From positions 3,696-67,695 of IMG/VR virus record IMGVR_UViG_3300024999_000093: 64,000 nt of DNA; one strand, written 5' to 3'. The notes beneath the pieces are model-generated. The model ran no database searches. It was not told the origin of the DNA and saw only the letters and a list, made by a program, of their open reading frames with translations. Positions 19,553 to 42,982 of this stretch are shown one piece after another. Every line of letters begins with the position of its first letter. The stretch's first letter is position 1. The position numbers and the translations under genes were made by a program. The stretch comes from a virus.

Positions 19553-19695
19553 GGAAAAGGAGCCGTATCTCTACGACTCCTTTGTGAGTGCAAATGCACC
19601 CCGTTGTCCCCGGGTTGTCCAAGATATACTAGGGGAGGCCGGGACAAACGGCCTTGTCGCAAAGTAGCTTACGCTTTGCCTATCCACCTAGTCTT
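19553..19695 (-). ncRNA. structured leader RNA, copy 3 (three-way junction + loop/target pairing) followed by terminator-like hairpin
   Basis: ACTAGG/CCTAGT closing stem, GCAAAG/CTTTGC, GGCCG-TTTGTCC-CGGCC; two downstream GGACAA targets; extended -10 TGGTACAAT. Confidence 0.6.
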
Positions 19696-19827
19696 AATAT
19701 TGTACCACGAATGCCAATTTACATAAAGACAATTGTTGTAAAGTAATTTTGTTACTTGTTCCATTTTACGTTAAATTTCGCAGAAAATAAGTGATATGAT
19801 TATGGGAAAAATAATGGGAGGAAGGAA

Positions 19828-20205
19828 ATGAAAAAATTAATCAAGTCGTTAGTTCTATCTATGACGCTAACCCTAATGTTCGCATTACCTGTATTGGCTG
19901 AAGAAACAACTGATGCCGCCACTATGGCTCAGGAAATTGCTGATGTACGTTCCCTTGAAATGTTTGGTATGATCACTCTTGATGCCAGGATATTTAACCT
20001 GATTACTGAGATTCAAATACACAAGTTGAAGGTTGAACCGGATTATATTTTTGCCAAAATAGCTCAAAGCTTGATGTTTCCGATTGGTGACGGGCTTACC
20101 CTAGAGGGTAGGGAATTTAATCGTATAGCCCTTATGGCCTCATATGGATTTTTGACTGATGATGAGGCGATAGTTCAGTTGCAGACATTAAGATTGGTTC
20201 GATAG
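19828..20205 (+). CDS. secreted protein (moron-like)
   Basis: classical signal peptide ending VLA-EE; own terminator at ~20210-20238. Confidence 0.6.
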   Translation: MKKLIKSLVLSMTLTLMFALPVLAEETTDAATMAQEIADVRSLEMFGMITLDARIFNLITEIQIHKLKVEPDYIFAKIAQSLMFPIGDGLTLEGREFNRIALMASYGFLTDDEAIVQLQTLRLVR

Positions 20206-20403
20206 AGGGAAGGGGCAAGGGTTTATCCTGCCCCTTTATTATTGTATTAAGATATATAAGTGATAAACTTGGAGGGAGATAATTGTTTAAATTAATCCTA
20301 GCTAGTTCCGTTCTGTTGAGTTGGGTAATAGACTTAGTATTATGGCAGGGTATTGTTGTGGTATTATTTTGTAGTTGTGTTTATTTAACAGGGAGGATGA
20401 TGA

Positions 20404-20610
20404 GTGATGAAGAATATCTCATTAAAGACAGCAAGTATTTGGAATTCAAGAGAAGAATTTTTTGATAGATTAAGAGCACCACTAAAAGGAGCAGCGTTTA
20501 TTTTATTCCTAGTACTCCTCTTGGCTACAATTTTTGGAGACGGATTCAATGGCAGGTGGCTAGAGTGCTTGGTTGGTGCGGTTGCGTTGGCGATAATCAT
20601 TAAGAAATAG
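20404..20610 (+). CDS. small membrane protein
   Basis: 2 TM segments; overlaps another small TM ORF (20283-20465). Confidence 0.4.
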   Translation: MMKNISLKTASIWNSREEFFDRLRAPLKGAAFILFLVLLLATIFGDGFNGRWLECLVGAVALAIIIKK

Positions 20611-20634
20611 AGTAGGAGGGGATAAGAACCTCTC

Positions 20635-23600
20635 CTACTTTTTTAATTTCAGAGTAGTTCCGGATTGAATGTACTTAATTCCTCTACCATCAAGAATGTA
20701 CTTCTTGCCCTCAAACCTTGCCTTCTCAATAGCTTTAGCCATCTTATCGATCTGATTATCCATACTCATACCCGGGGAGATCACGCCAAAATCCTTCCTT
20801 GTTCTCTCTCCAACGATTCTTTGCATTTCTGCATATTCCTTAGAAGTAAGGTCAATCCTTTGGTCTGTAATCGTAAAATACTTAGGAATCACAGTTGGTA
20901 TTTGCTTAGTCTCCCCGGTCTGATTATAAGCATTTAATGCAAGCTCAGCTTCTTTAGATGGTGAATACTTGGACACAAAACTTGGATTAGCAAGAACATT
21001 CAACGGGCTATTACTTCCGCCTTGATAGGTTTCCGCTTTATTGCCTAATGCGTCATAGGCTGGTTGGAGCCTAGTTTCAAGCAATGGTATTTTACTAGCA
21101 GATAGATTAGCTGTTTTCTCTGTCCAGTTCGGGCTATAGGTATTTCGTTTTTGGTTATCAAGTAATTGTTTTGCTTGATTTAAGAAAGTAGGAACAAATG
21201 AAGCCGGAACGCCTTGCAGAATTTTTGTAATGCCATCGCTAAAATCTCTTTGCCCAACTAAAGTTTGTAGTCCTTGCATTACCGGTTGCTCAGCAAATGC
21301 GTTTACGCCAGTCGCAAGCCCGTTCAAGAGAGTTCCCACTATGCCTTGTGCCTTTGCCCCATTCTTGTCTATGTCGGCCCCCATAGCGATAGGCAGAGCT
21401 TGGGGCTGGAACCAATCATAGGTAGCCAAGGTATCCCCCTTCTGCAATTTAGCAGCATCAGCATCTAGTCCACCCAGTACAAATCTTTTTAATGCACTAA
21501 TATTAATTTTGTACTGACCTAAGCCTATGGAATCATTCAATGCAGCAACATCAGGATCCTGATCCCTGGCCCCGGATATAATTCCGGTTCGATGCAGTAA
21601 TGCTCCAGTTCCTACGAGTCCTGTACTTCCAACGGTAGCCCTAGAGAATGCCTGAGCAAATGCTCTTTGGTCGAATTCCTTGCCCATTAGTGGTTTAGCT
21701 GCCTCCATGACTGTCTTAATAAATCCAGCGGGAGAGTAGTCTATTCCGCGGGAAAGTAGGCTTGCCGGCGTGCGTGGGTATTTAATAATGAAATCTCCAG
21801 CACCAAATTCCTTATCTCCATTAAGTTTCTGCTTGAATGTAGAGAATAGTTCGCTTAAATAGTTTTTATCTTGGAACGTCCGGTATTTTCCATCATAATT
21901 AGCAATCTCCTTCATAGCTTCCGTTGGTTCAGTTACCCTAGCGGCCTTCATTTGACTCCTCAACGAATCATCATAGGCAGCTTGGTAGAATGCTCTGTCA
22001 GGTGTCCTCAATTCAATATTCATAGCAGTTTCAGCTTTACCGAGGATACCTTTTCTGAATGTTCTTGTTGGATTAAGATCAAACTGCGATCCCAGTCCAG
22101 AAGTATCTATTCCTTTCATTGCATCCTCTAGCCCAAGTTTCCAACCCGCCTTCGCTCCTGATGCTTGAGTTTTCAAACTTGGAAGAGACATAGTTCTTTG
22201 TTTAGTGAATAAACTAGCAGCCTTATCAATTCCAGCACCCAAAACTTGACTGGCATTTTCTAATCCTGAGAACCCACCATTGCCAATTATATTCCTTAGA
22301 GCTGTTTTGGGGTTGAGTAATTGCGCCATAGTTTGAAGGGTCGCTACTTTCTGCCAAAACGAAGGAGGAACTTGCGATGCTACTGTATCTAGCATCCTAG
22401 CGATAGCAACTTGTCTTTCTCTCGAACCTTCAACCATACCCTGAATAGCGTTTGATTGCTCCACAAGGGTTTGAGCGGTTTCTTCGTTAAGTTTAGTCTC
22501 AGTTATCTTCCCCGCTTCATTTGCCTTCTTGACAACATCATCAGCATATTTAAGTATCCCTTCAGGCGATAACCTTCCCCACATTGAAAGCGCTTGGATA
22601 GCTTGCCCTTGACTCCTTGCTTTCTGAGAAGTTTTCTCAATAATGTTAATTGCTTCTCCGAACTTTCCGGCATCGTTCGCCTCTTTGATTAGTAATTGAG
22701 CCACGGCATTGCTTTCTGCGGTGGCCGGAGTTTCAGACATAACGAGATGCAAGGCCGCATCCTTATCCTTCTGGATATACTGCCTAGCTACTTCTAGGGT
22801 GTCTTTGTTGGTTATGTTTCCGTAGTTTAGTTCAGCATTCTTTAATTGTTCTACTAATGCCGGATCTGCTATCTCACCTTTTGCTACGGTATCAGGGAAT
22901 GATAAACGCTTGATTCCAACAGGTTCAACCCTCGGCATAGAAACCTTATCTAGCCCCTTGAGCACCAAGGTAGATGAAGGTCTTTCAATTACGGTCGCAG
23001 CGCTTCTGCTGGCTAAAGGCCTAATGGGTTCACTAATCGAAGCAGAATACCCAAGGTTGGGCATTTCGGAACTAACAGGACGAACTTCACCCAACCCCTG
23101 AAAAGGAATCCTATCCTTAATCAAACTCTCGTTAGTCCGTATTGATTTACTTGGTGCCTCAAGCATTCTGGCAGCAGGAGAAACTTGTTCAGGGAGGCTA
23201 CCAGATAAGGTCAATCTCTTTGGAGGCTGGATTGGTGGTTGCTCAGGTTGCGGAGTTAATTCGCGCGGCTTCAACTTAGGAATAGATTCAATCGTCCTTT
23301 TTCCAGGTAACTCACCTTTTAATGAGTCCAACGTGTTACTTAGAGCTTGATACTCAGGATCGCTGTAAGCCACACGGTACGCCTCGGTAACATAATCCTT
23401 TGGTTTATACGAAGAGTCGCTTATAGAGGTTAACAGCTCATCTGAGGACATTCCTAGTTCGTCAGCCACCTCATCCAATGGTCTGCCTGTTTTATCATTC
23501 CTGATCCAATTAGGGATAACTTTTTGCTCTTCAAATATGTCGGGATTTCCCTGCTTAATACCCCCTCTTGCCTTGACTTGATTGCGGATAGACTCAACCC

Positions 23601-24699
23601 TAGTTTGTCCATCAGCTTGCTTAAGAGACTTTGCTATATCCTGAACTTGCTTTTCCATCTTTGCTGATATTTCGTTTATGTCAGATTGAAGAGTATTCTT
23701 AAATGATTTAATAGGCTTACCGAACGCCTCTAGCCCACCATAACCCTCTGTAGACTTTCCGATACCCATACTGTCATCAATCCCCTGCTGTAATGTCTTG
23801 CGGGTAGCAGGAGTATCCACAGAGCCTATCGGAAGGTCTTTGAATGTGTCGTTTAGTTCAGCTTGTCTATTTTTGTAAGCCAATTCCTTTGGAGATAATT
23901 GAAGTGGTTCAGCCTTAGTTTCGAGCAAAGGTTTCCTGAAAGCATTTTGCACAGCTTCATCCAAAGGTTGAGCCAATTGTCCAAGTCTGCGGTCTGCAAG
24001 GATGTTTCTTGCTCCGTTAATTCCTTTTCCGGCCAATTGACCACCACCATGAAGCAACGATCCGCCAAGTGCCATTATAGGTGCTTCTTTCAGTCTGCCG
24101 GCGAATCCATCTACACCATCTCTATCTAGTGAAGTTTCTAACGCATTGATAGGTAGCGCGGCTGTTGCCCCGGCCCTTACACCCGTACCTAATGCAGGAG
24201 TAATTGCTTTAGGCAACAAGCTTACTGCCTTTGCAACCGGTTCAGTCTTGGACAATGCCGCCAAAGGCTTCGCTAGTAGAGCATCGCCCGAAACCCATAG
24301 CGGCAAATCGCTAACCATGTTCGACCCAAAGGATACAGCCTTTTCCCCTAATGTGTTCTGTTCGGGAAGGGTCGATAAGTCAACCTCCTTGCCTGTTATC
24401 TTCTCAGCCAATGGAGTTAACGCCCTCCCAGGTAGTGAACTTAGTGTTCCCTTTATGAAAGCTGCCTTGTAATTTGGATCTTGTTCAGCCGGTTCATTGG
24501 TAGAGGAATGAGACGAACGCAAATTATCCATGCTGATTAGAGGTTCGCGTTGAGTGGTTGGCGTTGTGGTATCCGGAAGCTCGTCCAAGAAATCAAAAAT
24601 GTTTCCACCGGACGAACTATTTCCAGCAGTAGGGGTGATAACGCTTATTGATTTATTCCTTTCGTCTTCATCATCTAAGTAATCGAATATATTCGCCAT
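20635..24699 (-). CDS. large internal virion/ejection-type protein
   Basis: 1354 aa, last gene of the podovirus-like structural operon; no tape-measure signature. Confidence 0.6.
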   Translation of the reverse strand: MANIFDYLDDEDERNKSISVITPTAGNSSSGGNIFDFLDELPDTTTPTTQREPLISMDNLRSSHSSTNEPAEQDPNYKAAFIKGTLSSLPGRALTPLAEKITGKEVDLSTLPEQNTLGEKAVSFGSNMVSDLPLWVSGDALLAKPLAALSKTEPVAKAVSLLPKAITPALGTGVRAGATAALPINALETSLDRDGVDGFAGRLKEAPIMALGGSLLHGGGQLAGKGINGARNILADRRLGQLAQPLDEAVQNAFRKPLLETKAEPLQLSPKELAYKNRQAELNDTFKDLPIGSVDTPATRKTLQQGIDDSMGIGKSTEGYGGLEAFGKPIKSFKNTLQSDINEISAKMEKQVQDIAKSLKQADGQTRVESIRNQVKARGGIKQGNPDIFEEQKVIPNWIRNDKTGRPLDEVADELGMSSDELLTSISDSSYKPKDYVTEAYRVAYSDPEYQALSNTLDSLKGELPGKRTIESIPKLKPRELTPQPEQPPIQPPKRLTLSGSLPEQVSPAARMLEAPSKSIRTNESLIKDRIPFQGLGEVRPVSSEMPNLGYSASISEPIRPLASRSAATVIERPSSTLVLKGLDKVSMPRVEPVGIKRLSFPDTVAKGEIADPALVEQLKNAELNYGNITNKDTLEVARQYIQKDKDAALHLVMSETPATAESNAVAQLLIKEANDAGKFGEAINIIEKTSQKARSQGQAIQALSMWGRLSPEGILKYADDVVKKANEAGKITETKLNEETAQTLVEQSNAIQGMVEGSRERQVAIARMLDTVASQVPPSFWQKVATLQTMAQLLNPKTALRNIIGNGGFSGLENASQVLGAGIDKAASLFTKQRTMSLPSLKTQASGAKAGWKLGLEDAMKGIDTSGLGSQFDLNPTRTFRKGILGKAETAMNIELRTPDRAFYQAAYDDSLRSQMKAARVTEPTEAMKEIANYDGKYRTFQDKNYLSELFSTFKQKLNGDKEFGAGDFIIKYPRTPASLLSRGIDYSPAGFIKTVMEAAKPLMGKEFDQRAFAQAFSRATVGSTGLVGTGALLHRTGIISGARDQDPDVAALNDSIGLGQYKINISALKRFVLGGLDADAAKLQKGDTLATYDWFQPQALPIAMGADIDKNGAKAQGIVGTLLNGLATGVNAFAEQPVMQGLQTLVGQRDFSDGITKILQGVPASFVPTFLNQAKQLLDNQKRNTYSPNWTEKTANLSASKIPLLETRLQPAYDALGNKAETYQGGSNSPLNVLANPSFVSKYSPSKEAELALNAYNQTGETKQIPTVIPKYFTITDQRIDLTSKEYAEMQRIVGERTRKDFGVISPGMSMDNQIDKMAKAIEKARFEGKKYILDGRGIKYIQSGTTLKLKK

Positions 24700-24710
24700 G
24701 CCATCACCCC

Positions 24711-25796
24711 TTACTTATACCGAGATTCATCTTCACCGTTCCATGTGTACGCTGAGCTTGCCAACTTCGCTAGATTATCCATATCTACACCAGCACTCAT
24801 AAAGGCGTTGGAATTGGAGTACATCCAATTAAGCACCTGATCCCTTGTCCATCCGAGATTAGCTTTTTCTTGCAGCTTAGACATGGCTTGTGCTGTTACT
24901 TGCTGTGAATTTTGCTTGTCTTGGTAATTTAATTCGCTAACGCTAGGCCTACTTCCACCACTCGATCTAGCTTGACTTGCCGCCAGCGCATTATTTCTAT
25001 ACTGGTTCTCTGCATCGAACTGAGCCTGTTTCATAGCGTTGGCTATGCTGTCTTGCTCCTTGGAATAGTCAAACTTATCCTGATTGTACCTATTGGCAAT
25101 ATCATCCTGTCCGACATTATGGTCATAGGCTCTCTGTTGCAAGGTTGATTTTCCGTCAAGGTTTCCAGTGTAGCCAGCATAATCAAACTTATTGTTCATT
25201 ATGTTTTGAGCTTGCTGTGCTTCAAGTGTTTGGCGAGCCAACGTGGGCATACCCATTTCGGCATCTTCCCTGGGTGCGTAGTTAGCGGAGATAGCGGACT
25301 TAATGCGAGTGGCTAAGTTGTTGTTATAATCCGTGTAGGCGTTAGCGGTATCCCCTGTCGAGTTTCCGTAGATACGCCGTGCGCCACCTAGCTCATCATC
25401 CTTAACCCCTGTCCCAGGCCCACCGAGGAATATATCGTTGGAATTTAATTTGGTTTTACCAGGCGTAAATAAAGAAACATTCTTCCCTGCATTGGCATCC
25501 ACGTCAGCCTGAAGTCCATATGTTCTCGGGCTAGAGTTACTTACTTGATTATCCGCGGTCTTAACAGGCACGCCGTTCTTCATGTTCTCCATGTACTTGT
25601 CGAAGCCGTTGGCCGTAGCCTCCGCAGTATCAGCGTGAATCCTTGTGGCTCCATTCAATTGATTATCATCAATACCAGTACCAGGCCCACCAAGGAATAT
25701 ATCTTGCGAGGTGAGCCTTGTTTGTCCAGGGATATAAAGCTGAACACCTTTGCCCTGATTAGCTAAAACGTCATCTTGTAACCCGTATACCGCCAC
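24711..25796 (-). CDS. putative ejection protein with tandem ~65-aa repeat
   Basis: two YGLQ...DIFLGGPGTG...GA.RI repeats; Q/N/A-rich. Confidence 0.55.
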   Translation of the reverse strand: MAVYGLQDDVLANQGKGVQLYIPGQTRLTSQDIFLGGPGTGIDDNQLNGATRIHADTAEATANGFDKYMENMKNGVPVKTADNQVSNSSPRTYGLQADVDANAGKNVSLFTPGKTKLNSNDIFLGGPGTGVKDDELGGARRIYGNSTGDTANAYTDYNNNLATRIKSAISANYAPREDAEMGMPTLARQTLEAQQAQNIMNNKFDYAGYTGNLDGKSTLQQRAYDHNVGQDDIANRYNQDKFDYSKEQDSIANAMKQAQFDAENQYRNNALAASQARSSGGSRPSVSELNYQDKQNSQQVTAQAMSKLQEKANLGWTRDQVLNWMYSNSNAFMSAGVDMDNLAKLASSAYTWNGEDESRYK

Positions 25797-25843
25797 GCTA
25801 TATCATCCTTTCTGGCAATAAAGTAGAGAGCCGTTTAGACCCT

Positions 25844-26374
25844 CTACTGTAAAACACCATTAACATAATAACCTCCACCAGAGGGACTTCGATAGATTCC
25901 AGTATTCGGAACGGATGTTTGCTTTCCGCCATAATAGCCCGTTAGATTTCCTGCATCTATACCATTGCCAAACCTATTCTGCCTTTTCTGCTCCTCAAAT
26001 TCAGCCGCCCATTGCTTCAACTTCTCCTGAAACTCATACTGCTCATTGCCCTGCACCCTTGACGCCAAGGTAGGAACACCATAGTAATCGTACGCCCCCC
26101 TTGGGTTATCGGTTGTTTTATTAGCAGCAGTAATATGAGTAACCTTGTTACCTTGAGCATTGTACGGATTACCTGGTCTAGTAATAGGTTGCACACTACT
26201 AGATGCAGTCCTAATAGCATTAGCCTGTTGAGTTACCGACGGGTCTGATGCCGGAACCGAGGCATTAACATTCGTGCCAATCGGATACCCTGCTTGGGGA
26301 GGTTGTTGAGTCCCTGCCTGTACAGGTGTTCCATCCGTATAGTATCCCGGTCTTTTGGGATCAATAGTAGGCAT
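25844..26374 (-). CDS. putative virion/ejection protein
   Basis: position in operon; shares motifs with neighbours. Confidence 0.5.
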   Translation of the reverse strand: MPTIDPKRPGYYTDGTPVQAGTQQPPQAGYPIGTNVNASVPASDPSVTQQANAIRTASSSVQPITRPGNPYNAQGNKVTHITAANKTTDNPRGAYDYYGVPTLASRVQGNEQYEFQEKLKQWAAEFEEQKRQNRFGNGIDAGNLTGYYGGKQTSVPNTGIYRSPSGGGYYVNGVLQ

Positions 26375-26388
26375 AGTTCACTCCTCCT

Positions 26389-27903
26389 TTATACATTCTT
26401 ATATTGAGGCATCCCATCATCCCTTGTCCCTATTTTTGTAGAACCTGCCGGAACAACTCCTGCTGGCAATTGGTCAGCATAGATAGGAGCATAATATTTC
26501 TTACCATGAGAGGTGTACGTCAACCTGTAACCAGTCAGCGCATAACCTCCGGCATTAGTAGCAGGAGCATTAGTCCCCGGCCCAACTATGGCATAGTTCT
26601 TCCACTCGGTGCCTGTTTTACCTTTAGTAGTTCCTTCGAGGTCAGGAGTTATATTCCCAGATGCGTCAATAACATCAGTGGTCGGGGTTTCCTCTACAGG
26701 ATCGGTAGCCTCCACAGGAACCACGCTAATCGTTCCATCAGGGTTAACTACGACTCTGTCAGTGCCATTGCTAACATCCCCTGGATAATTACCTGTTGTA
26801 TTACCAACCTGAATACCGTTCTCGAACTCTTGTTGATCAACCGAAGCATTGTAATTCAGCGCCCACTGAGCTAATCCGGAATAGTATTGTGCTGTACTTA
26901 ATCCAAGTTGAGCCGCGAACTGACTTGCATTTTGATCAAGTCCGGCCTGAGCGAGGGCATTCTGTGCTCCGTTCTGAGATATTTGCGCTGCTAGTTGAGC
27001 TTGAGACAGTCCAAGTGTCTGAGCGAATTGGGCAGACTGGTTGTTGATTTGTTGTTGTGCTTGCCCGGACGTTACTAACCATTGATTATCAGCTACCGCA
27101 TCCCTGCCGTATTGATAAGCAGCCGTATTATAATCGACCGCAGCCTGGGCCTGAGCAGCAACTATCTTATCCGCAAAACTAGCGTCGAGCTGTTGACCCG
27201 CGAGATTATTAGCATTGATATTGCTTGCCACTCCAATGTTGTTGGCTAGTTGTCGCGTTGCTGATTCCCCGGATTGCAATAGCCCCATCTGATTCAAGGC
27301 ATTGCGGATATGTTGAGCGTTCACCATTCCTGTAGCTGAAGCTGTGTTGTTCGCCGTTTCAGTTTGCCCTGGTATCTTTGCGCGTTCAGTGTTATACGTT
27401 CCAACCTGTGCCGCTAATTGGCCCTCCATAGTGGACTTAAGGTTTGCAAGTGCTTGAGCTTGGCGTACTCTTATTGCCTCCGCCTCTGCTTGTCTTGCTG
27501 CTTCTGCTGCCGCTTCTCTCGCTGCTGTTGCCTCTGCCTGTTGATTGGATGTCGCTTGCATCGCCGCTATGGCTGCTTGTATTTGGGCTGCGTAATCGAC
27601 AGGAGGAGTTGTTGGGGTTATCGTTTCAGAGGTTGGAGTGGTGGGTGTTGTCGTGGTGGGTGTAGTAGTCTCTGGGGTAGTGGCTGGAGTTGTCGTATCT
27701 GGGGTAGTTGCCGCCGGAGTACTATTTGGATTAGGAACACCCGGTATTCTGGCAGGTGGCCCACTTTCAGCCAATCCACTTCCTGCTAATCTGTCAGCGG
27801 TAGTTGTTGGTGTGTCATAGAGATTCCTTGTGCCGCTTGCCTGAGCAGCCGCAATGCTAGCTTTCCTTATTTCGTCTGCCGTTTGGGATGCGGTAGTTGC
27901 CAT
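26389..27903 (-). CDS. putative ejection/pilot protein, Thr-Pro and Ala-Gln rich
   Basis: TTP repeats, QFAQTLG/QFAAQLG repeats. Confidence 0.55.
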   Translation of the reverse strand: MATTASQTADEIRKASIAAAQASGTRNLYDTPTTTADRLAGSGLAESGPPARIPGVPNPNSTPAATTPDTTTPATTPETTTPTTTTPTTPTSETITPTTPPVDYAAQIQAAIAAMQATSNQQAEATAAREAAAEAARQAEAEAIRVRQAQALANLKSTMEGQLAAQVGTYNTERAKIPGQTETANNTASATGMVNAQHIRNALNQMGLLQSGESATRQLANNIGVASNINANNLAGQQLDASFADKIVAAQAQAAVDYNTAAYQYGRDAVADNQWLVTSGQAQQQINNQSAQFAQTLGLSQAQLAAQISQNGAQNALAQAGLDQNASQFAAQLGLSTAQYYSGLAQWALNYNASVDQQEFENGIQVGNTTGNYPGDVSNGTDRVVVNPDGTISVVPVEATDPVEETPTTDVIDASGNITPDLEGTTKGKTGTEWKNYAIVGPGTNAPATNAGGYALTGYRLTYTSHGKKYYAPIYADQLPAGVVPAGSTKIGTRDDGMPQYKNV

Positions 27904-28010
27904 GTCATACCTCCTTTTAGGGAAACAGACAAAAATAATAGAGCCTTTCAGCCCTTACTTTTGTCTGTTATTGTTTGGTTGGTGTTTCGTATAATGGGTC
28001 TGAGACATAA

Positions 28011-31887: not shown

Positions 31888-31888
31888 T

Positions 31889-32905
31889 CTACAAGAGTGC
31901 TAATTGCTGTATTCCATTATGATAATTAAGATATTCCAAAACGGTTTTTTCTCGTTCCTTGGAATAGTATTTGAATTTTGGATACCATTCCGAGAAAAGT
32001 TTTTTTCCCTTACTGCTATTACATCTTCCACAAGCAGGGACTGCATTAATGATAGAAAGTTCCCCATTTTTCGCTAATGGATGAAAATGATCCTGTTGCA
32101 ACATTTTTCCATCTTTAGGAACATCTCCGCAATATGCGCATGCACCATCAAAGTGTTTTAATGTTATTTCCCATTGTTCTTTTGTCAATGTTGACGCGAG
32201 ACTTTTCTTTAATGTCCTGCGCCTTTGATGAGATAATTTTTTCTTTTCCGGATTAGCATTGCGCCAAGCAATGGAATTTTCTCTAGCCCTGTCTTTATTT
32301 TTTTCATACCAAATGCGTGATCGCTCTATAGATTTTTCATTATTCTCTATACCCCATTTTTTTGATCTTTCCAATATCGTACCGCGATTATTTTGATAGT
32401 AAGTCTTCCACTGTTCTGGGTCTGGTGGGTTTAGCGCATATCTTTCCTTGCGCAACTTAATAAGTCTATCAAAATTAATTTCACCATATTTCTTTAGGTA
32501 CAACGCAATACATGACCTGCACCTACTTACAAACGCATTACCTCTCGGCTGAAAATACTCAGTTGTTGCAGGGAGATCCTCACCGCATGTCCCACATTTT
32601 TTGTATCCGGCTTTTACGTTTGACATGGTTGTAAAATTATATCCGGCGCATTCCTTACATGCGGAAACAAGTCTATTAGTTCGACTATTAAAATGGAAAT
32701 GATATTCGTCAGCAGGGAGTTCTCGCTTACATTTTGAACAAAATTTATATCCTTCTCTTGCGATAGGCTTCTGGAAGCATTTAGACCCTAAGCATTCCTT
32801 ACACGCAGAAACTAAACCATCTTTAACTCCAGACCGCGCATAGAAGTGGATTTTATCTGATGGCAGACTGCGCTTGCACCTCGAACATTTCTTCATTTCA
32901 TCCAA
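31889..32905 (-). CDS. free-standing HNH endonuclease with Zn-finger repeats
   Basis: 3 CxxC..CxxC repeats; CAYCG...QDHFHP...NAVPACGRCNSSKG. Confidence 0.85.
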   Translation of the reverse strand: MDEMKKCSRCKRSLPSDKIHFYARSGVKDGLVSACKECLGSKCFQKPIAREGYKFCSKCKRELPADEYHFHFNSRTNRLVSACKECAGYNFTTMSNVKAGYKKCGTCGEDLPATTEYFQPRGNAFVSRCRSCIALYLKKYGEINFDRLIKLRKERYALNPPDPEQWKTYYQNNRGTILERSKKWGIENNEKSIERSRIWYEKNKDRARENSIAWRNANPEKKKLSHQRRRTLKKSLASTLTKEQWEITLKHFDGACAYCGDVPKDGKMLQQDHFHPLAKNGELSIINAVPACGRCNSSKGKKLFSEWYPKFKYYSKEREKTVLEYLNYHNGIQQLALL

Positions 32906-32909
32906 AACA

Positions 32910-33012
32910 AATAACCCTCCTAAAGGTTTTTCTTTTTCCTAGCCATTCGGTAGCGCGGGGGACTAGGAAATCCCCCATAGCAAGGTCATGACTCCTTGTT
33001 ATTCGCTACTAT
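32910..33012 (-). promoter_or_regulatory. structured leader RNA, copy 1, upstream of HNH
   Basis: GTAGCG/CGCTAC, CAAGG/CCTTG, GGGGGA-TTTCCTAG-TCCCCC; targets CTAGGAA and TTAGGAGG (RBS); TGGTATAAT upstream. Confidence 0.65.
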
Positions 33013-33036
33013 AATTATACCATATTTTAGGTACAA

Positions 33037-34395: not shown

Positions 34396-34431
34396 TATTT
34401 CCTCCTAAAAAGAAGAGGGCAATTAAGCCCT

Positions 34432-34899: not shown

Positions 34900-34950
34900 A
34901 TTTTTACCTCCTCAAAAAGATAAGGCGAGTATTTCTACCCGCCTAGTTAA

Positions 34951-35751: not shown

Positions 35752-36747
35752 CACGCTGTTACCTTTGCGAAATATAGGAGTTAATGTTATTAAAACGTGC
35801 TTGTGTAAAGAATTTTTGCCTTGGATACCATTCGTCAACGTATGAATTATTTTTACTATTATTACAAGTCCTACACGCAGGTAATATATTTGTTTTCGTG
35901 TAGGGTCCACTTTTAGTTACGGGTATAAGATGATCTTGCTCAAGCTTCAGCTTTCTCCCACAATACGCACAGCAAAACTTAAAAGATTTCTTGCATTCGT
36001 TCCATTGCTCAGTGGTAAAATCTCTCACACTATTTGCTTCATTGGAACGTCTTTTATGTTTTGTTTTCAGCATGTAACCCTTGTGTTTTTCTGGGTTAGC
36101 TTTTATATAAGCCGTAACTCGTTTAATTATCTTTTCTCTATTCAACTCATACGTTCTGGCATGACGAATTATATTGAGCTTACTTTTATGCTCTTTATTC
36201 AGTATCCAATATTGCTTATCATATTCTCTACACTTTTCAATATTATCCCTGCGGTATTGTTTCGAGTACGCCTTGCCCTCTTCTCGATGGGCTGTGTTGT
36301 ATTCTAGCTTATACTCTGCTTTATGCTCTGCGTTGTCTACGTCCCATTTATCCTTGGACTTTTTCATGCACTTTCTGCACCATCTTTGTAGACCGTCAGA
36401 GTTAGCCTTGCATAAACTAAACTCAACTTCCTCTAATTCATTACCGCACTTTTTACACGTTTTCACATTAACTCCATTCCACAACGAGCTAATCATTTCT
36501 GTTAGCTTCTGCATGTTTCCATGCAGTTCAGACTATTACTTCCACGGTATACACCGCAGCCCTCTCAATTAGTCGTTGCAAGTGTTCTAGCTAATTATAT
36601 TATACCATTTTCGCCAACGGAATACAACATAATCTTCCAGAACTTCTTGAGCGTTTCCTTACCTTGTCCTATCTCGCTAGGCATTTGGCTTTAGGGGTTC
36701 GCCATTGATTAGAGAAGGTTTAGAGTGGGCAAAAATTAATGTATTAA
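35752..36747 (-). mobile_element. group I intron (996 nt) in major capsid gene
   Basis: P1 GUGGGU/GCCCAC with U-G at the 5' splice site; P7 GACUA/UAGUC (CAACGACUA...AAGUAAUAGUC); P3, P8, P9 (CUGCAUG-GAAA-CAUGCAG); terminal G before GAA AAT. Confidence 0.9.
35759..36466 (-). CDS. intron-encoded HNH homing endonuclease
   Basis: KTCKKC...WCRKC; CAYCG...QDHLIP...NILPACRTCNNSKN; likely GTG start 36466 after GGAG. Confidence 0.85.
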   Translation of the reverse strand: MKTCKKCGNELEEVEFSLCKANSDGLQRWCRKCMKKSKDKWDVDNAEHKAEYKLEYNTAHREEGKAYSKQYRRDNIEKCREYDKQYWILNKEHKSKLNIIRHARTYELNREKIIKRVTAYIKANPEKHKGYMLKTKHKRRSNEANSVRDFTTEQWNECKKSFKFCCAYCGRKLKLEQDHLIPVTKSGPYTKTNILPACRTCNNSKNNSYVDEWYPRQKFFTQARFNNINSYISQR

Positions 36748-36948
36748 ACCCACTGGCGAGAAGTTTCCGAGTGATGTCTCGATAGTGTACTTGTTGGCAA
36801 AGTCCTTCGTCTCGTCCATATAAAACACCTTGTCGATGATAGACATCTTCTGGAACGCTTCTTCCTGCTGTTCCAGCATCATTTTGATTGGCTCCTGTGA
36901 CTTACCGAAAATACTGTCATTAACTCCACTTGCTTTACTAAAAATCAT
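36748..36948 (-). CDS. major capsid protein, exon 1
   Basis: MIFSKASG...ETSLGNFSPVG, 67 codons, AAGGAG RBS. Confidence 0.85.
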
Positions 36949-37026
36949 TTCTTTCACTCCTTAAAATTTCAATAAAAATAGGACTCCTCATATTGAGAAG
37001 TCCCTCACTGATTCATTTCATTAAAC

Positions 37027-37428
37027 TTATCTGCGGAAATAACCTTTCACATTGGATGTAGTCGTCGCCCCATCGGTCGCGCTAATCTCAAACACGCCTG
37101 ACGAACTCGTTGCCGTTACCAAAAGACCATCGCTATGCAATGTAACCTTTGTTCCAATTACGGTAGCTGCAACGGTAGCCATACTCTTTGTGGAAAACTC
37201 CAACAGCTCAGTAACACGAATAACAGGCAAATCCGTAACAGAAGTTGACTCGGCAGTACGATCACACATTGCAATAAACTCCGGAACCCCGGTAGCCGCG
37301 CACTTCGTCAACCGTCCAGACGTTTGAGACAATGCCTCTCCCAACGTTGCACCCTCGTTATCTGTTAAAAGAAAATACTCAAATGGTGCTTGTGTCCCAT
37401 TAAGGCCACCTACTACTTTAAAAGCCAA
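37027..37428 (-). CDS. capsid-associated (decoration/cement-like) protein
   Basis: between scaffold and capsid genes, 133 aa beta-rich. Confidence 0.55.
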   Translation of the reverse strand: MAFKVVGGLNGTQAPFEYFLLTDNEGATLGEALSQTSGRLTKCAATGVPEFIAMCDRTAESTSVTDLPVIRVTELLEFSTKSMATVAATVIGTKVTLHSDGLLVTATSSSGVFEISATDGATTTSNVKGYFRR

Positions 37429-37441
37429 TTTAACTCACTCC

Positions 37442-38344
37442 TTATTTACTGTTTTTGTAATGCTTCTTATACTCATCTATTGACTTACCAGGATTAAACT
37501 TCTTGTACATACTCAACACATCATCCGGTATCCTGACCGTATCCCCTTCGACACCTTTGCCATTCCCTCGAACATGGTCCTTCGACTGAATACTATTCAG
37601 CGTAGATTGCTTGGCAGCCTCAACTTTTCGAGTCTCAATGTTCTTCCTCTCAACAACAAGATAAGCCTCGTTCAAGGTCAGCCCGGTTGAACCATTCCTC
37701 CACTTCCTCCACACATCGGGAGGTACATCAGCGACAGCCTTAATATCGGGATACTCCTTCGTCAACTCATCGAATGAACTAACTAAAAAGCTATCCTCCT
37801 GCGCCCTGATCGCAGCTTGCTTAAATTCTCTTGCTGCTTGAAGGTCTGGATGCTCATCTACGAGCTTCTTTACCATGTCTGGGTCAATTCCCTTAGCCGC
37901 GTATTCCTCGCGCCTTAGAGCTTCCTCAAATTGAGCTACGTTGTGGATGCCATGACTTTGCCCATACTTCTCCGCTACATCAGCATCGGAGAACACCCCA
38001 TATTGCCCGAACTTCTTGGCAATCTGAATATCCCTTTGATGTTGTGCCTCGACCTCCGCTACTCGACGTTCTGCCGCCTCTGACTTCCGTCGAAGTTCAG
38101 CAAACGCGGCATTCTGCTCGGGGGACTGTTTAGGCTTGGTGTCTACCTCAACGCCTTTATCGATCGTTCCTTCACTTTGGCTTGCTTCAAGCTCTGTGGA
38201 CCCTGTTGATATATCGGCTGAGTTATCTGTTGATTCAGTGGACTCCGTTGACCCGCTCGTCTCTTGTGATGTAGCGACTGCACCACTTCCGCTATCTACC
38301 TCATCCATAAATGGACGTAAATTCATATTTAATAGCTTGAACAT
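37442..38344 (-). CDS. scaffolding protein
   Basis: acidic disordered N-terminus, QSPEQNAAFAELRRK coiled coil; upstream of capsid. Confidence 0.7.
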   Translation of the reverse strand: MFKLLNMNLRPFMDEVDSGSGAVATSQETSGSTESTESTDNSADISTGSTELEASQSEGTIDKGVEVDTKPKQSPEQNAAFAELRRKSEAAERRVAEVEAQHQRDIQIAKKFGQYGVFSDADVAEKYGQSHGIHNVAQFEEALRREEYAAKGIDPDMVKKLVDEHPDLQAAREFKQAAIRAQEDSFLVSSFDELTKEYPDIKAVADVPPDVWRKWRNGSTGLTLNEAYLVVERKNIETRKVEAAKQSTLNSIQSKDHVRGNGKGVEGDTVRIPDDVLSMYKKFNPGKSIDEYKKHYKNSK

Positions 38345-38450
38345 ATCAATTCTCCTTTGCGTATCTTTCAGCCGCCGCCGTATTGCATCTATAAGGAAGA
38401 TGAGTCCTGCCCCAAATTAGGCAAAGAGAAAGACGGCTGTAATTGCCGTC

Positions 38451-38579
38451 TTATTTACCCGAACCACTACGAAGGTCTTTGCCTGTTTTCTTTACAGGGT
38501 TAGCATTCTTTTTGTCCATGTTGGTTGCCTTAATGTACCCTGCGCTGTTTTGAGGGATTTTCATGTTTTTCTCTGCCAT
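38451..38579 (-). CDS. small basic protein
   Basis: Manual translation MAEKNMKIPQNSAGYIKATNMDKKNANPVKKTGKDLRSGSGK. Confidence 0.5.
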   Translation of the reverse strand: MAEKNMKIPQNSAGYIKATNMDKKNANPVKKTGKDLRSGSGK

Positions 38580-38646
38580 TACTTGTCACCACCTTTCAAT
38601 GAAAATTGGCAAAAAATAAGAACCTTCTCGGTTCGTCAGTTGGCGT

Positions 38647-39054
38647 TTATTTAATTCCGTATTTAGCAGATTGAAGAAGGAAGCCAAGCATTTTCCACAC
38701 CTGATTGTAAATCCTATCCCTACATATCCCCTCACCAATGTCTTGGCTGTAATTAGAAGGGTCAACACATGAAGAAGATTCCGTAATAACAAACCCATTT
38801 CCTAGAGTGGCGTTTGCTATGGTGGTTTTATCTCCCCACTTCGTAAACTCAATATCCTTAACAAAGTCATGCACGTTACGCTCGACGATAGTGTTGTTGT
38901 CGCCAACCTGCATATACGCTTTCTCGAATACGTCTTCTGGCGACCAACTTACATAACCGTCAGGATAAACAACCTTATAACCATTCTCGTTGTTTCTCAT
39001 TTGTCGTTCCGCTTCGATCATCTTGAATCCAATATACTTTTCCATTTCTAACAC
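38647..39054 (-). CDS. Gp49/DUF2829-like phage protein
   Basis: GYKVVYPDGYVSWSP...NGFVITESSSCVDPSNY..IGEGIC...WKMLGFLL. Confidence 0.7.
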   Translation of the reverse strand: MLEMEKYIGFKMIEAERQMRNNENGYKVVYPDGYVSWSPEDVFEKAYMQVGDNNTIVERNVHDFVKDIEFTKWGDKTTIANATLGNGFVITESSSCVDPSNYSQDIGEGICRDRIYNQVWKMLGFLLQSAKYGIK

Positions 39055-39284
39055 TTCCCTTTCTTCATTCCGCTTTTCTTACCTGTTGAGCTACCCTTCT
39101 TGGGAGGAATTCCCACGCCCGGCATTGCCTTCATTAACATCATGTCGATTTTTAAGGAGGGCTTTTTAGTTGGTTTCTTCATTATTGCTATTAGCCTCCT
39201 TGTTAACTATTTCCTTTTCCCAATGGCACACTTCGCAGGGGCCATTCGGAGTTACTGAGCAAATTTCGCAAGGCATATGTGCTA

Positions 39285-39713
39285 TTACTGTTGCCCTCCT
39301 TTGATTAAGTCCTTAACCGAATAAACAGAAGTAAATATTTTTGCAAGATTTACAACCGTTGTTTCAACGTATTGCAACTTCTGTCTTCTAACTATTGACG
39401 GCGAGTCCACTTCGTCCATCAAATCATCTGCCATGTCGCTTATATCCGCTACGACAATGTGATAAAGCTCATGGACTATTGACTCCTCCCAATGCTCGTT
39501 TAATCCAGTGTGATCAACATTGACATGAATTATGGCTTCCTTTCTCAACCTGTGACGCTCGCACATCATGGCGGTATCAAGGTTGTCAGAATTAAAGATA
39601 TGCTTCATCTCGTATTGGCTAATATAGTCAAGCGAGATATCCCAATCCTGAATTCTGAGCATTTTAACAAGCGACCTTACTACTTCTTCAAGCTTTTCTT
39701 TTGAGGGTAGCAA
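39285..39713 (-). CDS. putative zinc metallopeptidase
   Basis: IVHELYH (HExxH). Confidence 0.55.
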   Translation of the reverse strand: MLPSKEKLEEVVRSLVKMLRIQDWDISLDYISQYEMKHIFNSDNLDTAMMCERHRLRKEAIIHVNVDHTGLNEHWEESIVHELYHIVVADISDMADDLMDEVDSPSIVRRQKLQYVETTVVNLAKIFTSVYSVKDLIKGGQQ

Positions 39714-41864
39714 TTACTGTTGCCCTCCCTGCTGTTGCATCAACATCTCAACAATTTGCATTTTCTGCTCATCAGGCGCATTTTTAAAGGCTTCCTGTTC
39801 TTCTGGACTCATATTCGCTAATGCTTCCTGTACGACTCGCGTTACTTGTTCCTGTGGATTCATACCACCCTGCATCTGTTGGGGCTGTGGCGGAGCTTGA
39901 GTGGCTTCTAGTGACATGTTGAGTTGTTGTGGTTCTGTTGTCTGTGGCTTGGCTTGTTGTTGTGGTTGTGGCATCTGTAATAATTGTCCCATTTGCTCTG
40001 GTTGACCTCCTTGCGACTTGATGCCCATCTTACCTAGCATCTGCGATTGAGCGTCAGGCATAAGGTCTTCATAGTTGATGGATATCTTAGCCTCCGGTTG
40101 TGGTGGTGGTGCTTTGGCCTGTGCTTCCATCTGCTTAGTCAGACTGTCAAGGATTGCCTTGGCATTCGGATATTTTTGCGAAACCATTTGTGTCCAAAAT
40201 GCGGTAGATGCAGGGCCGGGGTTATACGCTCCGTACTTCAGCATTTCAGTCGCTTGGGAGAATAGCCACATCTTATCTCTTGGTAATCCCATCCCTGCGT
40301 CTGCCTGAAATATAAAGTCCGTGTTGTAGTAAAGTTCGCCGGCAGCATCCCGGACAAGGAAGGCATATTTGTTAAAGTCGCCATAGTTGTCTTTTCCGTT
40401 AGCATCTTTGGTCACAAAGGGACGAAGTTCATCATAGAAAGCAAGTTTGAACTCGAACATAGTTTCATAAAGTTGTTTGTAGGCAGCGTACTTGTTGGCT
40501 TCTTTTGAGCGTAGGCGACCGGACGCTTGCTGCACTTGGATTTGTTTAGCGATCCCCGATACTGCGGTCGAGTCTGATTTGCCTTGATATGAGTTTGTGA
40601 TGCCAAGAGTGGACTGAGCTGCCTTGTATTGTTGTTGTGCAAAGGCCAGGTCGTTACTGATGTTGGCGGATAGATTTTTTACATTGAGTGCTGCTAATTC
40701 AGATTGGTTCCCTCTAATGATTCCGTACAACTCGTTGGACAGGTTGAACCTATGCCCTTCGAGTGCTGTGACCACAACGGAACCGCGCAATATCTTTTCT
40801 TCAATGGTGGATACTACTTTTTTGTAAGCGTCTTGTTGGTCGCGGATTACATCGACATCAGATTGACCGCCGAAATGGAAATTAAGAGGGATGTTTTCGC
40901 GAATGATTAATGGGTAGCGTGTTGGAGTGAAGTAGGGAACTTCTGTGCCAGGAGGAAGGACTTCTCCGGGTTGTCCATTAACAGAGGCAAGAGTTACTTC
41001 TGTGGCAAGCGTCTCGAACTTCTGGATTTTACCGTCAATTCTTCGTGCATAGAAGTTGCTCATATCTTCTAATATTTCGTCCTCGCACCATGTAAGCTTG
41101 CTAATCTCTCCATCGTCATTGCGATACCAACAGACAACTTCTGTCACCATGTCGGGGTTATTCGGTTGAGAAGTGTTATTAACTGTGCTTATGTTAGGGA
41201 ATTGTTCGCCTGAGTTTTCGAGATCCACATCATAGCGCTTTTTGATGTAGTTTTTTGTGACTGATGAGAGAATAAAGAAGTAGTCCATAGCTTGGAGGGA
41301 AAACACGCCGGGTTGCGGAACAATGCGTTTTGGATGAATAGACTCTATTTCTAATTCCCCGCGGTAAAGATGATGTTTAAAATCAGGATTCCAGCCTACC
41401 AGCATTGCAGAATAGCCTTGAACGGGTGTTATGCGCTCGTTTATGTCGTTTATTGCTGTCATGCCTAGTTCTGTTATGTCAGAGGTGAGGGAGTCTTCTA
41501 TCATTGTGGCTTGTGCTTCATAGCCGGGGAGTTTAGTGCGAACTGAGGGTTGGGGGATGGTGGAGTCAACGCCTGTTTCTATGAACTCTAGGACTAGGTT
41601 GACCACGTTGTTAGCTTGCTTCCTTCGTCCATTCGATGTTCTCTGATTTACGTTGGCATCTACGGTTGAAGTTCCTAGGTAGATGGCTTCTCGCTCGTCT
41701 CTTAATACGTCGAGGTCTGAGTTTTGTGCTTCTGCTAACTTGTCTTGCCACTTCTTCAGCTTTTCTTGTTGTTCGGATTCTTCTTTTTGTTTTTTTATGG
41801 AAGTTTTTACTTTGTCCACCACCTTTGCGCCGAAGTCTTTTATCTTATCAAGCAATTGCATCAC
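39714..41864 (-). CDS. portal protein
   Basis: 716 aa after TerL; DQQDAY, LGITNSYQG, Q-rich tail as in P22-like portals. Confidence 0.8.
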   Translation of the reverse strand: MMQLLDKIKDFGAKVVDKVKTSIKKQKEESEQQEKLKKWQDKLAEAQNSDLDVLRDEREAIYLGTSTVDANVNQRTSNGRRKQANNVVNLVLEFIETGVDSTIPQPSVRTKLPGYEAQATMIEDSLTSDITELGMTAINDINERITPVQGYSAMLVGWNPDFKHHLYRGELEIESIHPKRIVPQPGVFSLQAMDYFFILSSVTKNYIKKRYDVDLENSGEQFPNISTVNNTSQPNNPDMVTEVVCWYRNDDGEISKLTWCEDEILEDMSNFYARRIDGKIQKFETLATEVTLASVNGQPGEVLPPGTEVPYFTPTRYPLIIRENIPLNFHFGGQSDVDVIRDQQDAYKKVVSTIEEKILRGSVVVTALEGHRFNLSNELYGIIRGNQSELAALNVKNLSANISNDLAFAQQQYKAAQSTLGITNSYQGKSDSTAVSGIAKQIQVQQASGRLRSKEANKYAAYKQLYETMFEFKLAFYDELRPFVTKDANGKDNYGDFNKYAFLVRDAAGELYYNTDFIFQADAGMGLPRDKMWLFSQATEMLKYGAYNPGPASTAFWTQMVSQKYPNAKAILDSLTKQMEAQAKAPPPQPEAKISINYEDLMPDAQSQMLGKMGIKSQGGQPEQMGQLLQMPQPQQQAKPQTTEPQQLNMSLEATQAPPQPQQMQGGMNPQEQVTRVVQEALANMSPEEQEAFKNAPDEQKMQIVEMLMQQQGGQQ

Positions 41865-41918
41865 CCCCTAAAAATGAGCATAAGAAAAGCACCCCGAAGG
41901 ATGCTGTGGATTTCTTTT

Positions 41919-42884
41919 TTAAAATAGAGCTAGTTGTTGGCGATTGTCTTTATAGCCGAGGTAGAAGAGGATTTTTTGTTCCTTGGCTAATGCGTATGTA
42001 GGCTGTCTACGGAACCATGTTTTCCATTCGCTCGCCCTTTTGCTACTATTGCAACTTTTACATGAACCTATAATATTTTGGGAGGTCATTTCCCCGCCGT
42101 TATGAACAGGTACTAGGTGTTCTTTAGTAAGAGGAACCTCTTTTCCACAAAAGCAACATTTATTGTCGAAGTGCTGTTTCGCTGCTACCCATTGTTCTAC
42201 CGTGAGAGTATGTGCAAGTTTTTTCTTCTTAGCCTCATACCTCATACTGAGTAAATTGCATAGTTCCCTGTTTTCTGACCTCCATAACTTATTTCTAGCG
42301 TTAACGTATTCCTTGTTATTGATATAATAACGCCTTCCATATTCGGCCATATATTCTTTATTTTCCGCCCTATACATGCGGTTGTATTCGGATGCCGTTT
42401 CTTTATGACTTAAACGGTATAACCTTTGAACGGCATATACGGCAGGTTTATTGTTTTCTCGATATTCCCTACATCTCGTTATTATGATGATCTTGTTTTC
42501 TTGATAAAATTTCTTTTGCTGGATAGATTTTTCTTTTATATGCCCAGAGCGATATATTGCATTCTTTGTCATTATGGATTCTTTATTTTCCTTGAAATAC
42601 TCTTGATCATATTCGGATGTACATATTCTGCATATCCCCTTTAGTCCATCCTTGCTATCTTTTCTTGGTCCGAAATATTCATTTGTCGCTAAAAGTTCAT
42701 CTCCACACCCAGAACATATCTTAAACCCTTCCTTAGCGATAGGTTTCGGGTGAGTGAAGTTTCTCCCTCTGCACTCTTTACACATAGGGCATAATCCGTC
42801 TTTCTTTGCGGATTGCGTGCTGAAATGGTTTTTGTCTGCAGGTAAATCTCGTTCGCATTTGGAACACGTTTTCATTTCAGGCAT
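41919..42884 (-). CDS. free-standing HNH endonuclease (paralogue of 31889-32905)
   Basis: CSKC..CKEC repeats; CCFCG...EHLVP...NIIGSCKSCNSSK; similar C-terminal QQLALF. Confidence 0.85.
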   Translation of the reverse strand: MPEMKTCSKCERDLPADKNHFSTQSAKKDGLCPMCKECRGRNFTHPKPIAKEGFKICSGCGDELLATNEYFGPRKDSKDGLKGICRICTSEYDQEYFKENKESIMTKNAIYRSGHIKEKSIQQKKFYQENKIIIITRCREYRENNKPAVYAVQRLYRLSHKETASEYNRMYRAENKEYMAEYGRRYYINNKEYVNARNKLWRSENRELCNLLSMRYEAKKKKLAHTLTVEQWVAAKQHFDNKCCFCGKEVPLTKEHLVPVHNGGEMTSQNIIGSCKSCNSSKRASEWKTWFRRQPTYALAKEQKILFYLGYKDNRQQLALF

Positions 42885-42888
42885 AAAT

Positions 42889-42982
42889 AATAACCCTCCT
42901 AAAGGTTTTTCTTTTTCCTAGCTTAGTAAAAGTGGAAGGCATCTAGGATAATGCCTTGTCGGGTAGCTCTCCCTATCCACTC
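42889..42982 (-). promoter_or_regulatory. structured leader RNA, copy 2, upstream of HNH
   Basis: AGTGG/CCACT, GGG..CCC, AAGGCAT-TATCCTAG-ATGCCTT; 34 nt identical to copy 1 including RBS; TGGTATAAT overlaps the terL stop. Confidence 0.65.

Follow-up and report, generated by a model that had tools for sequence, protein, structure and literature searches.

What does an RNA element do that recurs three times along one virus, each time with a hairpin loop complementary to two sites just downstream of it? The question is raised by a stretch of 64,000 nucleotides (nt), here called the window, which covers positions 3,696 to 67,695 of IMG/VR virus record IMGVR_UViG_3300024999_000093, a complete virus of 67.7 kb. 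Each of three minus-strand sites, referred to as copies A, B and C, carries a TGnTAnAAT element, a few bases further on a three-way junction, and then two complements of the loop of the second hairpin. An initial annotation of the window had described these extended -10 elements, junctions, loops and targets, and both the sequence and RNAfold agree with it on all of them. Our reading of the comparative evidence is that the copies represent a known RNA family, int-alpA (Rfam RF02996), in a new gene context, accompanied at copy B by a likely scaffold-swapped analogue, and that comparison among relatives supports well a predicted mechanism in which the loop pairs with the ribosome-binding site (RBS) of the next gene.

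The minimum-energy fold is a three-way junction in all of A, B and C; z-scores for the junction alone are -2.36 for B (78 nt), -2.19 for C and only -0.45 for A. The junction of copy C (42927-42985) consists of a closing stem, P1 (GAGUGGA/UCCACUU), a UA joiner, a short hairpin, P2 (GGG-AGAGCUA-CCC), a GACA joiner and a second hairpin, P3 (AGGCAU-UAUCCUAG-AUGCCU), whose antisense loop, UAUCCUAG, lies at 42943-42950. Target 1 (CUAGGA, 42916-42921) is away from any start codon, and target 2 (UUAGGAGG, 42895-42902) overlaps the Shine-Dalgarno (SD) sequence of an HNH gene with its ATG at 42884-42882. The extended -10, TGGTATAAT (42987-42995), is accompanied by a -35, TTGGTA (43016-43011); a consensus scan scored this promoter at 10 of 12 matches with TG before the -10, and called no full -35/-10 minus-strand promoter at A or B. 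Copy B (32950-33009) is built on a different scaffold. Its P1 is GUAGCG/CGCUAC, its first hairpin (33002-32977) has a loop containing the palindrome UCAUGA (32991-32986), and its second, GGGGGA-UUUCCUAG-UCCCCC, presents the loop UUUCCUAG at 32963-32970. The extended -10 is again TGGTATAAT (33014-33022); target 1 (CUAGGAAA, 32935-32942) is part of a 34-nt block identical to copy C, and target 2 (UUAGGAGG, 32916-32923) overlaps the SD of a gene that starts with TTG at 32905-32903.

Copy A (19627-19692) follows the extended -10 TGGTACAAT (19699-19707), which went uncalled by the consensus scan because that scan needs a -35. Its parts are P1 (CUAGG-U-GG/CC-CCUAG), the UA joiner, P2 (GGCAAAG..CUUUGC, loop CGUAAGCUA), a GACAA joiner and P3 (GGCCG-UUUGUCC-CGGCC); it lacks the U between P3 and P1. 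The P3 loop UUUGUCC (19642-19648) is complementary to GGACAA at 19615-19620 (target 1) and to GGGACAA at 19604-19610 (target 2), the latter 4 nt (CGGG) 5' of a GUG. This GUG opens a putative 24-codon frame (19525-19599, minus strand), which ends in a UGA that overlaps, within AUGA, the ATG of the next gene. Inside the frame RNAfold predicts a 9-bp hairpin, GGAGUCGUA-GAGA-UACGGCUCC (19552-19580), followed by UUUUCCU; it looks like a terminator and was uncalled by the terminator scan.

Within the window the three copies agree to different degrees. The core GGAUAGG..GACAAGGC, common to A and C, has 2 matches in the window against 0.03 expected. Copies B and C share the -10 region and a target segment identical across 34 nt that includes both targets, and their junctions do not align. 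Because of this block the independent loop/target pairs in the window number two rather than three. The same loop core and target block have nonetheless been kept on unrelated scaffolds and ahead of genes whose proteins are only 33% identical (BLASTP E 2e-46). Chance was assessed with dinucleotide-preserving shuffles (5000 each) of the 60 nt downstream of each junction. The two sites of at least 6 nt seen at copy A were reached in 50 of 5000 shuffles, and the observed number of sites of at least 5 nt in 701 shuffles for B and in 607 for C. With a match this weak in the window alone, the significance of the two-site design has to come from relatives elsewhere. In the 90 nt upstream, the only sites of at least 5 nt are ACAAA at copy A and AGGAUA and AUAAU at copy C, all 5' of or overlapping the extended -10; copy B has none.

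Relatives were collected with an exact core pattern (GGATAGG, gap, GACAAGGC, gap, GCYTTCC), which gave 76 loci in the viral collection, or 58 distinct sequences including copy C, and at least 120 loci in the genome collection. One locus from an unpublished genome, G003, carries two labels (L222 and L327); it enters each count once, and none of the claims depends on it alone. A looser core pattern returned at least 119 loci, mostly chance matches, and was set aside. A covariance model built from 55 sequences (R1) was applied to the first 100 genome loci: 52 score at least 42 bits and every other match 32 bits or less, a gap that makes real instances separable from chance ones. By their record titles, the 52 strong loci belong to Desulfobacterota, Alpha- and Gammaproteobacteria, Planctomycetota, Spirochaetota, Bacteroidota, Bacillota, Nitrospirota, Bdellovibrionota and others. 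R1 also picks up more divergent copies in loci already collected, and the phage locus L176 contains three copies in all.

Across the window and the entire genome of this virus, R1 finds copy C (56.9 bits, E 1.4e-14) and copy A (28.9 bits, E 2.8e-6) only, with copy B unmatched at E<=10. Among cultured phages, R1 matches sites that are unannotated in Aeromonas phage 62AhydR11PP (40.4 bits), Vibrio phage phiV208 (27.8 bits), Psychrobacter phage pOW20-A (24.7 bits) and Vibrio phage 1.100.O (23.3 bits), the last between the terminase and portal genes, like copy C. Judging by these cultured-phage variants, neither the GGC at the foot of P3 nor the C of GACAA is invariant. No match was found in SPbeta, SPP1, SPO1 and T4 by a search whose coarse first pass means that absence is not implied. 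Megablast and blastn of the region against a phage collection gave no match, nor did a relative, L129, against phages and E. coli genomes. For the scaffold of copy B, a protein-guided search yielded one distant locus and a first-hairpin pattern six loci, all of them unrelated hairpins; within those searches copy B stands alone.

The predicted structure is strongly supported by the relatives. On the 55-sequence alignment, 93.2% of cells are paired, compared with 72.2% in shuffles; 224 cells are changed on both sides (77.1 in shuffles), and the covariation score is 0.558 (0.174 in shuffles). None of 500 shuffles matched these values, and sliding the partners by 1-3 columns lowered pairing to 37-57%. 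The invariant columns are fixed by the search pattern and are uninformative; the covariation sits in the free parts of P1, P2 and P3. The initial annotation had spoken of three covarying copies whose stems differ in sequence and still pair. The folds and the covariation in the family, where the stems covary strongly across 55 relatives and a covariance model recovers C and A, uphold this idea. It does not extend to copy B, which cannot be aligned, nor to the targets of B and C as independent instances.

The P3 loop is highly varied among relatives (UCCAAUG, CUCAGUG, UCUGAUG, CCGAUG, GCUAAG, UCCUGG, AUCCGU, GCCCCCG and others), and the downstream sites vary with it. Among 51 distinct hairpins, 30 have at least two Watson-Crick sites of 5 nt or more for the cognate loop in the next 55 nt. 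When loops were permuted (5000 permutations), a mean of 3.8 and a maximum of 10 hairpins had two such sites. With sites of at least 6 nt the count is 16 of 51 (permuted mean 0.8, maximum 5), and at least one site of 5 nt or more is present in 40 of 51. We relied on exact-match permutation rather than on ranking the duplex energies of cognate against foreign loops, which is dominated by GC-rich stem parts and places the cognate at a median rank of 8 of 51. The modular family foreseen in the initial annotation, with its fixed scaffold, free loop and two covarying downstream sites, one of them at the RBS, is what the relatives reveal.

The geometry is regular as well. In 109 distinct instances, 73 of which have at least two sites and 96 at least one, target 1 starts a median of 7 nt past P1, and the start-to-start spacing of the targets has a median of 14 nt (interquartile range, IQR, 12-17). 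The end of target 2 is separated from the start codon by a median of 6.5 nt (n=66, IQR 3.25-9), and GGAG or GAGG occurs in 43 of 75 target-2 windows versus 15 of 75 target-1 windows. The duplex energies of the loop with its two targets are nearly equal (means -8.93 and -9.46 kcal/mol, Wilcoxon p 0.12). The TAnnTTTG motif is typical of Bacteroidetes, which make little use of SD pairing; in loci with this motif upstream, target 2 still ends 1-6 nt before the ATG. Only 25 of 109 instances have a -10-like hexamer 2-14 nt before P1, or a TAnnTTTG motif, and a constant location at the 5' end of a transcript is accordingly not shown; some relatives directly follow the stop codon of an upstream gene. 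In four viral loci (L064, L135, L139 and L157), the RNA stands ahead of tail assembly chaperone genes inside late operons, placements which indicate that the module is not confined to transcript 5' ends. At L135 it is immediately 3' of the upstream stop codon, with no obvious promoter.

The family turned out to be continuous with int-alpA, so that the novelty assumed in the initial annotation is lost. Rfam, named there as a check, returned no match for the whole window at gathering cut-offs, and a search of a 10-kb stretch at E<=5 missed copy C. In a 201-nt search, RF02996 matched copy C at 42917-42983 with 31.9 bits (E 3.4e-5), below the gathering cut-off of 35.8 bits. RF02996 gave no match at E<=10 in the genome of this virus, unlike in the 201-nt search, and copy C was probably missed there by the coarse first pass. 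Copy A had no Rfam match and copy B no int-alpA or C4 match at E<=10.

On 11 relatives, RF02996 gave a match precisely at the position of the motif in 4 (26.8-33.9 bits), and three genomes with the core pattern contain seven RF02996 matches above the cut-off. Two of these loci, L329 (40.4 bits) and L331 (36.5 bits), have both the core pattern and strong R1 matches. The remaining above-cut-off members have the same loop-and-two-targets design on a slightly different core, for example a loop AUUCCUUCAA with UUGAAGGA present twice. Conversely, 4 of 8 RF02996 loci are also R1 matches, L326, L329 and L331 at or above the cut-off and L327 with 18.7 bits. A methanotroph-type genome, G002 (L324, L328, L330 and L331), has four int-alpA matches above the cut-off and one below (20.7 bits); those above the cut-off represent at least three different loop/target specificities.

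The junction characteristic of int-alpA (joiners UA and GA-N-A-(A), conserved first pairs of P1-P3) is complete in copy C, lacks one joiner U in copy A and is absent from copy B; its 3' tail, a complement of the P3 loop with AgGG opposite CCuU in the consensus, is present at A, B and C. Judged by sequence and fold, the family is int-alpA in a wider sense, with copy C a member just under the curated line, copy A a more divergent member and copy B a non-member, although the initial annotation had included it. Copy B, which presents the same loop and the identical targets from an unrelated scaffold, reads as a scaffold-swapped analogue. The int-alpA motif is reportedly one of the 224 candidates of Weinberg et al. 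2017. In the main text of PMC5737381 the motif is unnamed, while the supplements of that paper may describe it and a pseudoknot. Elsewhere int-alpA appears as the name of an RNA in one table of Rfam matches (PMC12370729), and another paper uses the term for a gene order (PMC13612085). We found no functional study of int-alpA RNA in a literature search that covered PMC5737381 by term searches of its main text.

The genes that follow the RNA in relatives are mixed. The first open reading frames (ORFs) at 57 viral loci match HNH_3 (12), NUMOD4 (10), AP2 (4) and GIY-YIG (2), and others encode three tail assembly chaperones, two glycosyltransferases and, once each, a P22-type antirepressor, primase-polymerase, replisome organiser and 5'-3' exonuclease. 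At 33 loci in bacterial genomes there are 2 integrases, 1 AAA_25 protein and 1 weak FeoC match (E 1.7e-4), the remainder being without a Pfam match. This mixture means that the RNA is not tied to nucleases or to toxic genes, the latter being what the initial annotation had inferred it to gate. We would expect homing endonucleases, tail assembly chaperones, primases, an antirepressor and integrases to be of kinds needed in small amounts.

In the window itself, copy C and its HNH gene (41919-42884, minus strand; 321 amino acids, Pfam HNH_5 and HNH) are flanked by the large terminase gene (42988-44604) on one side and the portal gene (39714-41864) on the other, both identified by PHROG matches. 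A weak match to group II intron D1-D4-3 inside the portal gene (39751-39846, minus strand; 20.9 bits, cut-off 32) is probably due to chance. Copy B likewise precedes an HNH gene amid virion genes (31889-32905, minus strand; 338 amino acids, Pfam HNH). The copy-B protein has about 50 additional N-terminal residues, its residue 54 aligning with residue 5 of the copy-C protein, and this excess looks like a duplicated Cys-rich N-terminal unit. Both proteins nonetheless open with M-(D/P)-E-M-K-(K/T)-C-S, as M-D-E-M-K-K-C-S in copy B and M-P-E-M-K-T-C-S in copy C. Copy A is followed by a gene for a 96-amino-acid helix-hairpin-helix (ComEA-like) protein with an N-terminal hydrophobic stretch (19247-19528, minus strand; Pfam HHH_3), and 3' of it lies an amidase endolysin gene (18342-19001; Pfam Amidase_3, PHROG endolysin). 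A 1354-amino-acid ORF just upstream of copy A (20635-24699, minus strand) had no Pfam or PHROG match at the thresholds used.

Taken together, these patterns make it rather probable that the leader RNA acts as a translational throttle, limiting translation of the next gene by pairing of its loop with the RBS. The proposal starts from the structure and its covariation, the covariation of loop and targets, and the position of target 2 at the start codon; repression, a role for target 1 and action restricted to the RNA's own mRNA are what we infer from them. A leader module of the int-alpA type, with closing stem P1, short hairpin P2 and second hairpin P3, would hold the conserved junction GGA-UA-GG[P2]C-GA(C/A/U)A-[P3]-(U)UCC and leave the P3 loop free to vary. 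This loop would complement target 1, about 7 nt past P1, and target 2, about 14 nt further on and over the 5' part of the RBS, and pairing with target 2 would hide the RBS from the 30S subunit and keep translation of the next gene low. The genes so held down here would be those of two homing-type HNH endonucleases (B and C). At copy A the next frame is probably the short leader frame, which runs through the terminator-like hairpin ahead of the ComEA-like/endolysin block. The loop may there govern translation of the leader frame and thereby read-through into the lysis-side genes, as judged from one sequence only, and leader frame and hairpin together could be a coupling or attenuation device. 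Target 1, which pairs about as strongly, could serve as a decoy that sets partial repression, or as a second docking site.

Several observations weigh against a throttle of this kind. The target pair was said to include the RBS, and this is so at B and C, where target 2 lies on the SD; at copy A, target 2 misses the SD of the annotated gene, which follows about 70 nt downstream. The match at B and C is, for the window alone, within reach of chance. By the strict test, a second site of at least 5 nt is absent in 21 of 51 relatives and any site in 11 of 51. The near-equal pairing energies imply that the design alone does not favour the closed state, and a pure repressor would hardly be expected to carry a decoy competing for its loop. 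Nor does a mere scaffold for a loop seem to explain why the junction is conserved across phyla.

Could the RNA instead act in trans, on any mRNA with matching targets? The first hairpin bears on this possibility. Of 46 distinct P2 hairpins, 18 contain in their inner part a Watson-Crick palindrome of at least 6 nt (2000 shuffles: mean 4.35, maximum 12), and 34 contain one of at least 4 nt (shuffle mean 19.6, maximum 30). These are shuffles of the inner part, shuffling of the whole P2 being a poor control (22 of 55 observed, mean 13.5). In the 13-nt P2 class, 10 of 12 members have a 6-nt palindrome (G-U allowed) in the 7-nt loop, all of them different, among them UUGCAA, UCGCGA, GUGCAC, CACGUG, UGUACA, GUAUAC, CUGCAG and CCAUGG. 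Other members have the palindrome-free loops UCGCU, UCGCA, UCAUU and GAAA. The P2 palindrome is frequent, not universal. A dimeric antisense RNA comparable to c4/CI would make use of it: the junction of about 60 nt would be released or terminated as a small RNA, two copies would kiss through their P2 loops, and the resulting pair of P3 loops would clamp targets 1 and 2 of any matching mRNA. Such an RNA predicts "immunity groups", with B and C in one and A in another. The excess of palindromes over shuffles, including those of the 13-nt class and the UCAUGA of copy B, is consistent with it, and the equality of the two targets would follow from a dimer that carries the same loop twice. The identity of loop and targets in B and C, on different scaffolds and before diverged genes, also speaks for it, as does the Rfam type of int-alpA, "Gene; sRNA". 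P4 CI RNA, moreover, has a similar layout and acts on two sites. However, many members are palindrome-free, copies A and C have only AGCU (within GCUAC), the UAGCU that recurs across phyla is possibly a tertiary contact instead, and no conserved mark of a 3' end is present past P1. We regard a trans-acting dimer as unlikely, with a modest chance of being right. Only a small chance goes to its most far-reaching form, a programmable repressor in which P2 kissing joins two RNAs, twin P3 loops clamp tandem targets in trans, and orthogonal groups operate among selfish nuclease genes, satellites and prophages across many phyla.

Two further alternatives were considered. In a regulated two-state switch, a ligand, protein or ribosome on the junction would set the P3 loop on target 1 (on) or target 2 (off). 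Two alternative pairings nearly equal in energy are what a switch needs, and the junction nucleotides (UA, GA-N-A and the first stem pairs) recur in many phyla while the rest varies, a recurrence on which the pattern-built alignment alone is uninformative since the search pattern fixes these nucleotides. The downstream genes share no pathway, hence no obvious common signal, the junction is very small, with about six unpaired nucleotides, and no co-travelling gene for a partner protein was seen, no systematic search having been made; a switch of this kind has a slim chance. Control at the level of transcription, with loop-target pairing promoting early termination, either Rho-dependent or intrinsic, appears highly improbable. 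P4 CI RNA does act by promoting early termination, and copy A has the terminator-like hairpin between target 2 and the gene, which blocked translation of the leader frame would expose. That hairpin is the one uncalled by the terminator scan, however, and in most relatives target 2 is only 3-9 nt from the start codon, which leaves no room for a terminator.

From the comparative evidence int-alpA, catalogued without a known function, gains a concrete and testable candidate mechanism. The family extends well past int and alpA genes, to many phyla and to phages of hosts with different promoter types. If the throttle reading is correct, the RNA would represent a very widespread device by which mobile DNA adjusts, with no protein regulator, how much of a dangerous or low-copy protein is made, and a natural library of small orthogonal loop/target pairs usable as riboregulator parts. 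The self-complementary P2 loops may point to a natural dimerising regulatory RNA. Should the dimeric repressor exist, it would do as an RNA what a dimeric protein repressor does on two operator half-sites, and copy B would demonstrate that the specificity loop is transferable between unrelated scaffolds.

How does this design compare with known systems? Translation of the homing endonucleases of T-even phages (mobE, I-TevI) is reportedly held down by hairpins that pair with the RBS (Gibb and Edgell). The likeness lies in a phage homing endonuclease whose RBS is paired to limit translation, a pairing that is here predicted. The T-even hairpins differ in being local and in having no conserved scaffold, duplicated target or variable loop. 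A local RBS-sequestering hairpin was considered for B and C and rejected: their SD is predicted to be outside any stable local hairpin, and its complement is in a loop 40-55 nt upstream.

The c4/CI RNAs of phages P1, P7 and P4 (C4, RF01695) come closer in architecture, as the initial annotation had rightly noted. In the printed Rfam consensus, and in the C4 model on P4 CI RNA, a closing stem surrounds a small hairpin and a hairpin with an antisense loop, and the RNA likewise lies on the same strand in the leader of the operon that it controls. The c4/CI RNAs act on two target sites, which change together with the loop from one heteroimmune phage to another; c4 pairs through two distinct loops, and C4 RNAs are processed to about 77-79 nt, with RNase P at the 5' end. 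C4 differs in its 17-bp P1, in lacking 5'-side joiners and any unpaired nucleotides separating its hairpins, and in its 3'-side UUGCCAA joiner; moreover, one c4/CI target set (c4-a1b1) is located upstream, whereas here both targets are downstream. The C4 model gave no match at A, B or C and 74.9 bits on P4 CI RNA as a positive control, and the best R1 score in P4 was 9.1 bits, no match. With neither model finding the other family, membership in C4 was rejected. In phage P4, matches to isrK (60.8 bits) and c4-a1b1 (44.1 bits) overlap at 8615-8705 (minus strand), just upstream of CI RNA.

The closest likeness is with int-alpA itself, in the order P1, UA, P2, GA-A-A-A, P3 with a CCU-containing loop, P1' and a tail ending in AgGG. 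The core found here, GGAUAGG..GACAAGGC, differs from the Rfam consensus gcC-UA-Gcc..GAAAA-GCGGG, and the context differs as well: in this virus the RNA heads HNH genes and a lysis-side block, not int and alpA genes.

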